Assembly (NCBI GenBank): GCA_038868075.1
Contig: JAWBXB010000002.1
Coordinates: 73,769 to 137,768 of the forward strand
DNA from: Candidatus Bathyarchaeia archaeon
GTDB lineage: Archaea > Thermoproteota > Bathyarchaeia > Bathyarchaeales > DTEX01
DNA: 64,000 nucleotides
Direction of reading: 5' to 3'
Positions 11,087-14,154 of the stretch are shown piece after piece. Made by a program: the position numbers and the translations under genes. The notes beneath the pieces are model-generated. The model made no database searches. It worked only from the letters and a program-made list of their open reading frames with translations, and was not told the DNA's origin. The number at the start of each line of letters is the position of its first letter. The first letter of the stretch is position 1.

Positions 11087-11912
11087 ACTTGGATCTCCCT
11101 TAAGTAAAGCCCTTCAAGGAACATGGAAAATCCTAAAGGAAGCAACAAAAAGAAAAATCCTGCCTGATAAAATTATTAGACTGGATTTCGCTGTCACTCA
11201 ATAGTAATTCTTCGGAGTCGCGATTAACGGTTCTATTTTAAGGAGAAATTTTAGTAGTTTTAGATTTCTGAGAATTTATGCATAATAAGTAGGCATTTCT
11301 ATGAGGGCTTCGCCAGACGAATAGGTTTCTAAACGCTGGAAGAAATAGCGCAGTTAATTAAGGCGGCTCTGAACATATAGATATTTACTACTCTTGGAGT
11401 ATGGAGGCTGTTAATTACAACTTATGGAGGAGGCTAATTTTTATGAAGGGTATTTTTAAATTTTATGGGATGTTGTATTATGTTTCGTGATGAAAATATA
11501 AGATACTTTGATGAGCCTGGTCCTCAAAAATGCTTAGCGTTAACGTTCTGATAATCTTTAAGGATAATAAGAACGCCAATGAGGGTTAAGGGGTAATTAT
11601 TGTGGGTGAAACAAGATCAGTTCTGAGCAAATAAATGAGATAAGAAAGACGATCGAGAATTTCCTGCGTTAACGTTAAGAGGAACATTCGGTAAACCCTC
11701 TCAAGCCCCAGTATTCTTCCTTAACCAATTTTGCTGCAGTTCTAAATTTGGAGAATCTTCCACTAAATCTAAGTTTAGCCTTTTTAAGGAAGTTGCTGAA
11801 GACCTCCGGAACCTTATTTTGGCCACTAAGTCTCTTGCAGGGCTAGTGGTTGCCTATAAGCAGCAAATAGCTTAACAAAACACTCTTAAATCAATTTATT
11901 ATAGATGTAATT

Positions 11913-12305
11913 ATGAGGAGCCGGGTTCATTTGGGTTTCATTAAGGTTAAATTTGGTGTTTTTAATCCGCTTTCTCCTGCAAAGATTACTGAGGTAGAGG
12001 GTATAGTTGATACAGGAGCAATATATAGCGTTATACCTAGAAGGAGACTTGAGGATCTGGATGTTAAGCCAATTAAGAGGAGAAGGTTTAGGGCTTTTGG
12101 CGGGTATGTTGAGAGGGATATAAGTGAGGTTGGAATGGAGATTATGGGAAGGAGGAGGACAGTAACCGTTATTGTGGGGGAGGAGGAAGATCAAATCATT
12201 TTAGGCGTAACAGCCCTAGAATCCTTCGGTTTAGAAGTCGACCCAGTAAAGGGAACGTTGAAAGAGGCGGAGCTCCTACTTCTTGCAGTTCCATCCCTCT
12301 GTTAA
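11913..12305 (+). CDS. Retropepsin-like (clan AA) aspartyl protease, AF0612-like
   Basis: IVDTGA catalytic motif and C-terminal ILGVTALESFGLEVDP. Confidence 0.85.
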   Translation: MRSRVHLGFIKVKFGVFNPLSPAKITEVEGIVDTGAIYSVIPRRRLEDLDVKPIKRRRFRAFGGYVERDISEVGMEIMGRRRTVTVIVGEEEDQIILGVTALESFGLEVDPVKGTLKEAELLLLAVPSLC

Positions 12306-12373
12306 GCTCCCCCTATAAATGAACAGTGTATTAATAACTTTTCCCTTTTGGTCCACCTAAGACTCTCACAACT

Positions 12374-12612
12374 CTAACTTTTGTTGAATTGAAGGCTGAC
12401 TCTTCGGCCATCTTTTCGAGCTTCATAAGTTACTATTGTATTTGGGTTTACCCCTAATATTGTTTCTATCAACAATCCTTCGAAGGCTAGATAATTGTAA
12501 AATGAGTATAGGGCTGAGAAATAATTCTCATCAACGGTCTTATATTTTGCTCCGCCCTCCACTATATGCTGAAGGCTTTGCTGGGAAAGAGCGAGTACAT
12601 CTTTAGAAGCGG
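12374..12612 (-). pseudogene. Fragment resembling the N-terminal SAM-like domain of a tyrosine recombinase
   Basis: Reads KYKTVDENYFSALYSFYNYLAFEGLL, like the KT(I/V)ENYFSALSSFYDYL.FEG segment of archaeal XerC-type integrases. It then decays and has no catalytic domain. Confidence 0.5.
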
Positions 12613-12613
12613 C

Positions 12614-12933
12614 AGCTTAGACCACTTTGCACAGAACTTTAAAAACAGAGGAAGCATGTAGCCGAAGATAACATGATAAATTTCAAGACCTTCGGCACTT
12701 CAAGGCAACAATGGGGTACCATAAGACTAAGGACATACTTTACGTTAAATAGCTATTGGGACATAAGGGCATCAGAAACACCCTGAAATACACTCACCTA
12801 GTTAAGTTTGAGTCCGATGAATGCGTCTGTAAGGTTGCTAGGACAACCCGAGGAGATATCAAGTTTGATTGAAGCGGGATTCGAGTACATATGTGAACAC
12901 GAAGGGCTGAAATTCTTTAGAAAGCGCAAGTAG
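12614..12933 (+). pseudogene. Tyrosine recombinase (integrase) C-terminal remnant
   Basis: Reassembled across frameshifts: SLDHFAQNF..KQRKHVA...FKTFRHFKATMGYHKTKDILYVK*LLGHKGIRNTLKYTHLVKFESDECVCKVART.EEISSLIEAGFEYICEHEGLKFFRKRK*. RH, LGH and the Tyr are retained. There is an in-frame TAG at 12750. It ends about 40 bp from the tRNA 3' end. Confidence 0.85.
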
Positions 12934-12971
12934 GAGGGCGCGGAATGCCTGGAGGAGTGAGGTTGCGTAAA

Positions 12972-13128
12972 TGGTGCGGGGGGTGGGATTCGAACCCACG
13001 AACCCCTTCGGGACGGGATACCCCATCCTTTTAGATCTTGAGTCTTACGCGCATATGGCGAAGGATAGCCATATACTCCGCGCATTAAGTCCAAATCTGC
13101 CTGTTTGACCTGGCTCTGCCACCCCCGC
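12972..13128 (-). tRNA. tRNA-Leu(CAA) with three introns (21/22: 13104-13086; 29/30: 13077-13045; 37/38: 13036-13020), CCA encoded
   Basis: Removing 19-, 33- and 17-nt introns gives GCGGGGG TG GCAGAGCCAGGTCAAATGC G CGGGA CT-CAA-GA TCCCG TCCCGAAGGGGTTC GTGGG TTCGAAT CCCAC CCCCCGC ACCA, with complete acceptor, D, anticodon, long variable and T arms. Each intron has a BHB motif. Confidence 0.92.
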
Positions 13129-13227
13129 ATCCTCATATATTAGCTTTATCGTTTTTCTGCGATAATTATATTTTGTGGTTTCATCTCTAGGATTATTGTT
13201 TCACGCTTTATTGCTGGAGGAAACTCT

Positions 13228-14154
13228 ATGAGTGAAGATAGGATTGTTGAGATGATTGAGGAGGCAAGCAAGAGTGTTGTTAACATTAATACTTTGAGAG
13301 TTTTTCATGACTTTTTATATCAGGTTGTTCCGGTGGAGGGGATTGGTTCAGGCTTCATCTTCGACGAAAGGGGCTATATTCTAACCAATTATCATGTTGT
13401 TGAGGGTGCGAGGAGAATTCTGGTAACACTGGTTGATGGGCGTACTTTTGAGGCCAGGTTTATTGGGGCTTATAGGGGTTTGGATATAGCGGTTTTGAAG
13501 ATAGATGCGGACAATCTAGCCGTAGCCAAGCTGGGCGATTCCGATAAACTGAGGGTTGGACAGAGGGTCTTTGCTATAGGAAACCCATTTGGATTGGCTG
13601 GTGGACCAACGGTTACGTCTGGTGTCATAAGCGCATTAAAGAGAACAATCCACTCTGAGAGGGGAATATTTAGGGATCTGGTTCAAACCGATGCTGCTAT
13701 AAACCCGGGTAACTCAGGCGGACCATTAGTTAACGTTAATGGGGAGGTTGTTGCGATAAATACGGCTATAATTCCATTTGCTCAGGGAATTGGCTTTGCG
13801 ATACCAATAAACGCTGCTAAGGAGGTTGCCAGAGAAATAATATTGTATGGTTCTTACACAAGACCGTGGCTTGGGATAGCTGGTGTTAGCGTGAATAGGC
13901 AGATTGCCGAATACTATGATTTGCCGGTTGAACATGGGGTGCTCGTTGCTAGAGTTACACCCGACAGCCCAGCCGATAAGGCTGGAATCGAGCGGGGTGA
14001 CATAATAATTGAGTTTGATGGTAAGCGTATTGATGGGATAGAAGAGTTACAGAAAATTTTGGCCGAGAAGAAGCATGGTTGCGAATGCGAAGCCATAATT
14101 TTAAAGGGATTGAGAAAGTTTAGAGTAAAAATTTTGTTGGAGCGGGAGCCATAA
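13228..14154 (+). CDS. HtrA/DegP-like serine protease with PDZ domain
   Basis: GSGFI, TNYHVV, DIAVLK, QTDAAINPGNSGGPL, followed by a PDZ domain. Confidence 0.93.
   Translation: MSEDRIVEMIEEASKSVVNINTLRVFHDFLYQVVPVEGIGSGFIFDERGYILTNYHVVEGARRILVTLVDGRTFEARFIGAYRGLDIAVLKIDADNLAVAKLGDSDKLRVGQRVFAIGNPFGLAGGPTVTSGVISALKRTIHSERGIFRDLVQTDAAINPGNSGGPLVNVNGEVVAINTAIIPFAQGIGFAIPINAAKEVAREIILYGSYTRPWLGIAGVSVNRQIAEYYDLPVEHGVLVARVTPDSPADKAGIERGDIIIEFDGKRIDGIEELQKILAEKKHGCECEAIILKGLRKFRVKILLEREP

Follow-up and report, generated by a model that had tools for sequence, protein, structure and literature searches.

A tRNA-Leu(CAA) gene with three predicted bulge-helix-bulge introns in a Bathyarchaeia archaeon, and relatives that carry one, two or three of them

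We find that a 157-nt unit on the minus strand of the window (the whole stretch of DNA analysed, 64,000 nucleotides) is very probably a real tRNA-Leu(CAA) gene with three bulge-helix-bulge (BHB) introns spliced by EndA and RtcB; its transcription, cleavage and ligation in vivo we infer from sequence. The unit occupies window positions 12972-13128, which correspond to C2:86740-86896 in G000, the window's own genome (C-numbers are contigs, L-numbers orthologous loci from relatives). It starts with GCGGGGGTGGCAGAGCCAGGTCAA, ends with GTGGGTTCGAATCCCACCCCCCGCACCA and lies 13 kb into the window, on a 138-kb contig. Deletion of 19, 33 and 17 nt at tRNA positions 21/22, 29/30 and 37/38 leaves an 88-nt tRNA-Leu(CAA) with encoded CCA. 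ARAGORN calls this product tRNA-Leu(caa) with a full cloverleaf, and the call survives 115% stringency. The acceptor stem has 7 bp and the anticodon stem 5 bp, the variable arm is long, the T-loop reads TTCGAAT, and the only mismatch in the complete cloverleaf is G13-A22 in the D stem. Variable region TCCCGAAGGGGTTC, A73 and anticodon CAA mark the product as a class II tRNA-Leu, and the claim of the first-pass annotation that removal of all three introns gives a textbook Leu tRNA thus holds by ARAGORN. The 3′ half of the gene shares about 96-97% identity with the remaining Leu genes in G000. Exons and introns are arranged as follows, in the order of transcription.

13105-13128, minus strand: exon 1, 24 nt, tRNA positions 1-21, GCGGGGGTGGCAGAGCCAGGTCAA; acceptor 5′ strand, D-stem 5′ strand and D-loop
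13086-13104, minus strand: intron 1, 19 nt, at the D-loop/D-stem junction 21/22; central helix 13110-13107 with 13091-13088
13078-13085, minus strand: exon 2, 8 nt, positions 22-29, ATGCGCGG; D-stem 3′ strand, G26 and anticodon-stem bases 1-3
13045-13077, minus strand: intron 2, 33 nt, in the anticodon stem at 29/30; central helix 13083-13080 with 13050-13047
13037-13044, minus strand: exon 3, 8 nt, positions 30-37, GACTCAAG; anticodon CAA (ARAGORN: caa)
13020-13036, minus strand: intron 3, 17 nt, at the canonical site 37/38; central helix 13042-13039 with 13025-13022
12972-13019, minus strand: exon 4, 48 nt, positions 38-76; anticodon-stem 3′ strand, long variable arm and T arm
12974-12972, minus strand: encoded CCA at the 3′ end of exon 4, preceded by the acceptor 3′ strand and discriminator A73

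A split or permuted tRNA gene is ruled out, since the four exons are collinear within 157 nt. The intron of Haloferax tRNA-Trp is a box C/D guide RNA, with box C (RUGAUGA) and box D (CUGA) inside it; both boxes are absent from all three introns of the present gene (17-33 nt), as read directly in the sequence.

All three introns lie in BHB motifs with 4 of 4 central pairs between 3-nt bulges. The motif of intron 1 consists of the central helix GGTC/GACT, the bulges AA^A and TA^A and the inner stem CAGG/TTTG, with four inner and two outer pairs. Intron 3 has the central helix CTCA/TGGG, the bulges AG^A and GT^A and the inner stem TCT/GGA, giving three inner pairs and two outer pairs, the latter rising to five after removal of intron 2. 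Intron 2 has the central helix GCGC/GCGT and the bulges GG^A and AA^G; with a single outer pair it forms a relaxed motif, so that at least two pairs in both flanking helices are present for introns 1 and 3 and not for intron 2. These helices, bulges and cut sites agree with those read initially, except for the inner stem of intron 2, which had been given as 8 bp and in fact comprises 9 bp (13076-13068 paired with 13059-13051). Because of a repeated A, sequence alone leaves the positions of the intron 1 and intron 3 junctions ambiguous by one base; a symmetric cut after the second bulge base places them at 21/22 and 37/38, and the junction of intron 2 is unambiguous.

Splicing solutions were enumerated with a SPLITS-like program that requires a 4-bp central helix, 3-nt bulges and a flanking helix and considers sets of up to three removals, filtered by ARAGORN at rising stringency together with a motif score. 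In a relaxed enumeration of 398 candidate motifs and 111,798 combinations, the three-intron solution ranked first by ARAGORN stringency and motif score. ARAGORN as the sole filter of splice combinations was rejected as too permissive, as it returned 5,699 "solutions". When the introns were shuffled in place (100,000 trials), an equal or better motif at the true junctions arose at frequencies of 6e-4, 1e-5 and 8.5e-4 for introns 1, 2 and 3, respectively.

The junctions can be read from relatives. Searching 40 related genomes at the DNA level and scanning public genomes with a pattern yielded 27 distinct Leu(CAA) genes, and three further genomes (G013, G030, G036) were read by hand in addition. 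Six of the eight possible intron combinations occur among the 27 distinct orthologues (digits stand for introns 1, 2 and 3; 1 = present).

Pattern 111: nine distinct orthologues, and the hand-added G013
Pattern 011: six distinct orthologues
Pattern 101: two distinct orthologues
Pattern 001: two distinct orthologues
Pattern 110: five distinct orthologues
Pattern 100: three distinct orthologues, and the hand-added G030 and G036

Intron 1 is exactly missing in L010, L014, L015, L016 and L018, intron 2 in L017, L018, L021, L031, L061, L074 and L098, and intron 3 in L019, L020, L021, L031, L038, L046, L065 and L074. The joins in intron-less orthologues are always the predicted ones (GGTCAA to ATGCG, GCGCGG to GACTC and CTCAAG to ATCCC), which fixes the boundaries independently of any motif. 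A survey of Bathyarchaeia Leu(CAA) genes had been proposed as a check on the gene, and in these 27 orthologues the introns are indeed present or absent exactly at the predicted junctions. The exons are almost invariant across the set, and the introns diverge freely. Exon 1 is near-identical, with differences confined to position 9 and the D-loop; exon 2 is almost invariant (its final base is A in L065); exon 3 is invariant in 27 of 27.

Pairing within the motifs was evaluated in anchored alignments in which the variable loop was replaced by AAAA. The central helix is paired in 95.8% of cells for intron 1 (18 orthologues), in 100% for intron 2 and in 100% for intron 3 (17 orthologues). The central helices vary on one side, in line with expectation, given that one of their strands belongs to an exon. 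The inner stem of intron 2 shows compensatory two-sided changes in five of the seven pairs tested and is paired in 96.4% of cells, a level that was reached by 0 of 500 shuffles, and slid controls collapse. Introns 1 and 3 have short inner stems, in which the first one or two pairs persist, with some compensation. Taken together, exact presence or absence in orthologues and conserved or compensated helices uphold the initial assignment of three BHB introns to 21/22, 29/30 and 37/38.

Three more distant Bathyarchaeia genes carry the middle intron shifted by one or three bases, at 30/31 (L084, L095) and at 32/33 (L065). Each shifted intron has a well-formed motif of its own and leaves the mature sequence unchanged; either intron sliding or independent insertion would account for these positions. 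As a separate observation, Leu genes with other anticodons and the same 5′ exon also have an intron at the same D-loop site, between GGTCAA and ATGCGC (L041, L058, L070, L082, L096, L100, L107, L114, L118 and L129). The records of these loci are labelled Woesearchaeota, Micrarchaeia, Nanoarchaeia and Methanosarcinales, DPANN-labelled genomes included. Some of these Leu genes carry T-loop introns as well, and up to three introns are found in one gene (L100, L107).

The enzymes that would process such a transcript are encoded in G000, a draft assembly of 1.58 Mb in 41 contigs that is 97% complete. It contains two EndA paralogues, located around C3:75128-75373 and C1:136622-136876, each with both Pfam domains (PF01974/PF02778), and RtcB (PF01139, 585 bits). 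The EndA alpha subunit (188 aa) keeps the catalytic Tyr/His/Lys and has 2cv8, 3p1z_B and 3ajv_B as best PDB matches. Together with 2zyz_B, these place it nearest to the catalytic subunits of the heterotetramers from Sulfolobus tokodaii, Aeropyrum pernix and Pyrobaculum. In alignment, its loop YGKPLGIPKPKSP corresponds to the specificity loop of crenarchaeal enzymes (IPKPKS against VEKPRG), with Lys residues opposite K44 and R46 of the Aeropyrum pernix enzyme. In the second paralogue, which is full length (196 aa), Ser replaces the catalytic His; it is nearest to the Methanocaldococcus homotetramer enzyme and not to the shorter crenarchaeal beta subunits. The crenarchaeal specificity loop confers cleavage of D-loop and relaxed introns (PMC3241643), and a catalytic EndA with this loop, a non-catalytic paralogue and RtcB form the enzyme set that accompanies non-canonical introns (PMC4090602, PMC5829648). 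The set in G000 is thus predicted to be of the broad-specificity alpha2-beta2 EndA type, with putative assembly into a heterotetramer. Having one outer pair only, intron 2 would need a broad-specificity enzyme, an activity to which these features point.

We propose that transcription of the gene yields a precursor of about 157 nt, with exons of 24, 8, 8 and 48 nt alternating with the three short introns. Each intron, together with upstream exon bases, would form a BHB module closed by a stem internal to the intron, the three modules standing side by side with single bases between them. A heterotetramer-type EndA, composed of the catalytic alpha subunit and its His-less partner, would cut after the second base of each bulge; RtcB would join the exon ends, and the introns would probably be circularised. 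The end product would be the 88-nt class II tRNA with A73 and encoded CCA. As exons 2 and 3 are only 8 nt each, stepwise cycles of cutting and joining seem likelier than all six cuts at once: with six cuts before ligation, exon 3 would be held by just two base pairs. Three abutting modules and two 8-nt exons make this precursor a demanding substrate for testing the order and coupling of EndA and RtcB.

It is unlikely, by our estimate, that the gene is real and spliced with at least one junction or the mechanism differing from this scheme, be it that intron 1 or 3 is cut one base aside, that intron 1 is removed through a relaxed motif or after removal of another intron, or that an obligatory order starts from intron 2. 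The one-base ambiguity of introns 1 and 3 in sequence leaves room for a different cut, but the mature sequence is identical with either one. An obligatory order would agree with RNAfold predictions for the whole precursor, in which the intron-2 module is the only one to appear in the ensemble (probability about 0.55), introns 1 and 3 staying at about 0 at 37 and 70 °C and in every intermediate. It would also agree with the competition for G46, shared by the outer helices of intron 1 (C17-G46) and intron 2 (G46-U82), and with the anticodon stem that closes intron 3, which lengthens from 2 to 5 bp upon removal of intron 2. The authors of tRNAscan-SE 2.0 state that some multi-intron genes need one intron removed before the next motif can form (PMC8450103). 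However, all three can coexist, as there is no overlap between the core modules (precursor positions 19-44, 46-85 and 87-110). Moreover, single-intron orthologues, with intron 3 only or intron 1 only, show equally low folding probabilities (the canonical intron is likewise at about 0 in orthologues with no other intron), and folding therefore says little on order. The low values for introns 1 and 3 reflect either an energy model unsuited to short motifs or a need for protein binding or folding of the tRNA body.

Much less probable still is a tRNA pseudogene in decay, interrupted by accumulated insertions and left unprocessed, with UUG read by tRNA-Leu(UAA). A tRNA-Leu(TAA) gene is indeed present at C7:106535-106652, and the region just downstream of the locus is ORF-poor and looks degraded. 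Decay is, however, difficult to reconcile with exons that are almost invariant among 27 orthologues with freely diverging introns, with splicing helices maintained through compensatory changes, with insertions located exactly at sites that form BHB motifs, and with a spliced cloverleaf that is complete apart from G13-A22. The locus is also the sole Leu(CAA) gene found in the 97%-complete assembly. Blastn with the spliced sequence revealed no second Leu(CAA) gene in its 41 contigs; matches were limited to exons 1 and 4 of the locus and to the 3′ halves that other Leu genes have in common with it, and no further CAA anticodon arm was found in a tRNA context in G000. An intact, uninterrupted Leu(CAA) gene elsewhere, which the first-pass annotation had named, coupled with an untranscribed locus here, as evidence against its reading, was thus looked for in this assembly and not found. 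An interruption created by assembly or binning of the metagenome-assembled genome is the least probable explanation, and we consider it negligible. The genome is a draft in 41 contigs, and several contigs of relatives end at or near the gene; yet at least ten assemblies from the genus, independent of one another (G000, G001, G003, G006, G008, G009, G011, G013, G014 and G019), share the three-intron layout with diverged introns, and the locus lies in the interior of its 138-kb contig.

Given a real three-intron gene, we analysed how the introns are distributed within the genus. The upstream HtrA-like neighbour of the gene is syntenic in only a subset of the three-intron genomes, and RtcB was used for the tree instead; several forks of this single-gene tree are unresolved. 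Within the genus, its early branches all have pattern 111, and the 011 and 001 genomes fall in a derived clade. All outgroups in the order carry intron 1, and its absence in G002, G012, G016, G022 and G007 is therefore a loss, which may have occurred only once in the genus. G007 (001) is nested among 011 genomes, indicating an additional loss of intron 2. Intron 3 is present in the genus and its sister G038 and is absent from the 110 and 100 lineages. A tentative reading, which we put at slightly under an even chance, is that a single Bathyarchaeia genus holds a graded series from three to two to one intron, in which 111 is ancestral and introns 1 and 2 were deleted base-exactly in derived species. 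If true, an active and precise route of intron loss would exist, e.g. gene conversion or recombination with a reverse-transcribed copy of the spliced tRNA, and the locus would be a natural test bed for archaeal tRNA intron loss. It would then also test if 8-nt micro-exons force an ordered, coupled cut-and-join pathway.

Interrupted tRNA genes are not confined to this locus. ARAGORN in intron mode and a scan anchored on the T arm detected many long tRNA precursors in G000. A custom solver predicted about 32 introns in about 44 tRNA genes (0.73 per gene) and resolved about 20 interrupted genes, to which the following entries belong.

C2:39416-39569, plus strand: tRNA-Ser(GGA), three predicted introns of 23 nt in the D-loop, 26 nt at 29/30 and 16 nt at 37/38
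C6:77324-77518, minus strand: tRNA-Trp(CCA), three predicted introns of about 30, 31 and 61 nt
Six genes with two predicted introns: Val(GAC), Val(TAC) (two genes), Lys(CTT), Arg(TCT) and Asn(GTT)
Eleven other genes with one predicted intron

The tRNA-Ser(GGA) gene lies 34 kb before the window and shares two of three intron positions with Leu(CAA); the tRNA-Trp(CCA) unit, at 195 nt, is the longest tRNA precursor in G000. With the strict 3-4-3 motif, the solver gave no resolution for the D-loop intron of Leu(TAA) (C7:106535) or for a 122-nt precursor at C8:69246-69367. Extra tRNA 3′ halves with no recognised adjacent 5′ half were seen at C28:431, C4:32233 and C1:134087, one of them Thr(TGT)-like, one Gly(TCC)-like and one ending in GTGGGTTCAAATCCCACCGGGTCCGCCA; they may be att-type duplications or further interrupted genes.

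The expectation that standard scans would miss or mis-call the Leu(CAA) gene proved true for ARAGORN, which missed it in default mode and in intron mode called it Phe(aaa) with a single 68-nt intron. Rfam RF00005 barely detects it (32.5 bits, threshold 29). It recognises the T arm and acceptor of exon 4 and misplaces the anticodon arm: 67 nt are put in the D region and part of intron 3 becomes the 3′ strand of the anticodon stem. In a whole-genome Rfam search the locus was absent among the matches listed. tRNAscan-SE 2.0 iterates intron removal (PMC8450103); in Asgard archaea, it reportedly overlooks inserts in the D arm (bioRxiv 10.64898/2026.10.13.758758). By default scans, the genome and its relatives would seem to be without tRNA-Leu(CAA) and about ten other tRNAs. 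Such gaps distort estimates of completeness and codon usage for Bathyarchaeia, which are among the most abundant archaeal groups of sediments and hot springs.

The surroundings of the gene were inspected on both sides. On the 5′ side we note one element.

13159-13179, minus strand: A/T-rich box ACCACAAAATATAATTATCGC, 31-51 nt upstream of the tRNA 5′ end; candidate BRE/TATA promoter

In L004, L006, L009 and L013 this box (CCAYAAAAYATAAYTAYCGC) is preserved within an otherwise diverging spacer, and in most of the other orthologues an ATAAT-type box is located about as far upstream; the assignment as a promoter is putative. The HtrA-like protease gene, in divergent orientation, starts at 13228. 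Directly 3′ of the tRNA, window 11090-12933 is ORF-poor, with about 1.8 kb without intact genes. Within it, a stop-to-stop frame on the plus strand at 12753-12872, LLGHKGIRNTLKYTH, resembles the C-terminus of a tyrosine recombinase, and ORF 11913-12305 gives a weak match to retropepsin-like aspartyl protease (23.9 bits, just below the cut-off). Pfam gave no match for either putative integrase fragment, the frame at 12753-12872 or the stretch at 12374-12616 (minus strand). A 112-aa ORF at 12798-13136 (minus strand) was rejected as a protein gene; it overlaps the whole tRNA, is a translation artefact and would be a false call.

Contigs of relatives often end inside the gene or a few hundred bases away from it (L005, L006, L010, L011, L013, L016, L018, L186 and L187), which fits a variable or repeated region, such as an integration hotspot, on the 3′ side. 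In L006, L010, L013, L016, L018 and L021, a conserved palindromic motif, TTTACCGGTAAAAATTTATAT, comes immediately after the CCA of Leu(CAA), and in G000 it comes after that of Leu(TAA) (C7:106653 onward); in the window, TTTACGCAACCTCACTCC stands in its place after the CCA of Leu(CAA).

Knowledge of archaeal tRNA genes carrying up to three introns goes back to 2007-2008 (PMC4033280), in particular from Thermoproteales such as Pyrobaculum, Thermofilum and Caldivirga (Sugahara et al. 2007/2008, cited in PMC4033280 and PMC8450103). The statement made with the initial annotation, that triple-intron tRNAs are rare and described mainly from Thermoproteales, is out of date, as multi-intron tRNA genes abound in Thaumarchaeota and Asgard archaea, too (PMC8450103, PMC11291895). 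A limited literature search found no paper linking Bathyarchaeia with tRNA introns. The three-intron Leu(CAA) is thus a known archaeal phenomenon in a further lineage, whose close relatives carry one, two or three introns, and it leaves the known principle of archaeal tRNA splicing unchanged.

Like Thermoproteales, G000 has an EndA with the crenarchaeal specificity loop, predicted in G000 to be heterotetrameric, and the intron load is similar (0.84 per tRNA gene in Thermoproteales, PMC8450103, and about 0.73 in G000). However, G000 belongs to another class, Bathyarchaeia, and its non-catalytic EndA paralogue is full length (196 aa), unlike the shorter crenarchaeal beta subunits. Whereas Thermoproteales show intron transposition between tRNA genes, a search for copies of intron 1 elsewhere in G000 gave only chance-level matches among the matches listed. 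The closest biochemical parallel in our comparison is pre-tRNA-Thr(UGU) of Aeropyrum pernix, in which a D-loop BHB intron is cut by the alpha2-beta2 EndA with a requirement for K44 of the specificity loop (PMC3241643); the EndA alpha of G000 has the equivalent Lys. That case concerns a single, biochemically tested intron, whereas the present gene has three predicted ones. In Asgard archaea, most tRNA genes are interrupted and more than half carry several introns, introns in the D arm occur frequently and often escape standard annotation, and gains and losses recur along the tree, all of which resembles the situation in G000. Asgard archaea are another lineage with a higher load, above two introns per gene, and in the present Bathyarchaeia genus the clearest signal is exact loss, not gain. 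The added value here is this within-genus series of exact intron losses, which, with exact junctions for three introns, complements the gain-centred picture drawn from Thermoproteales and Asgard archaea.
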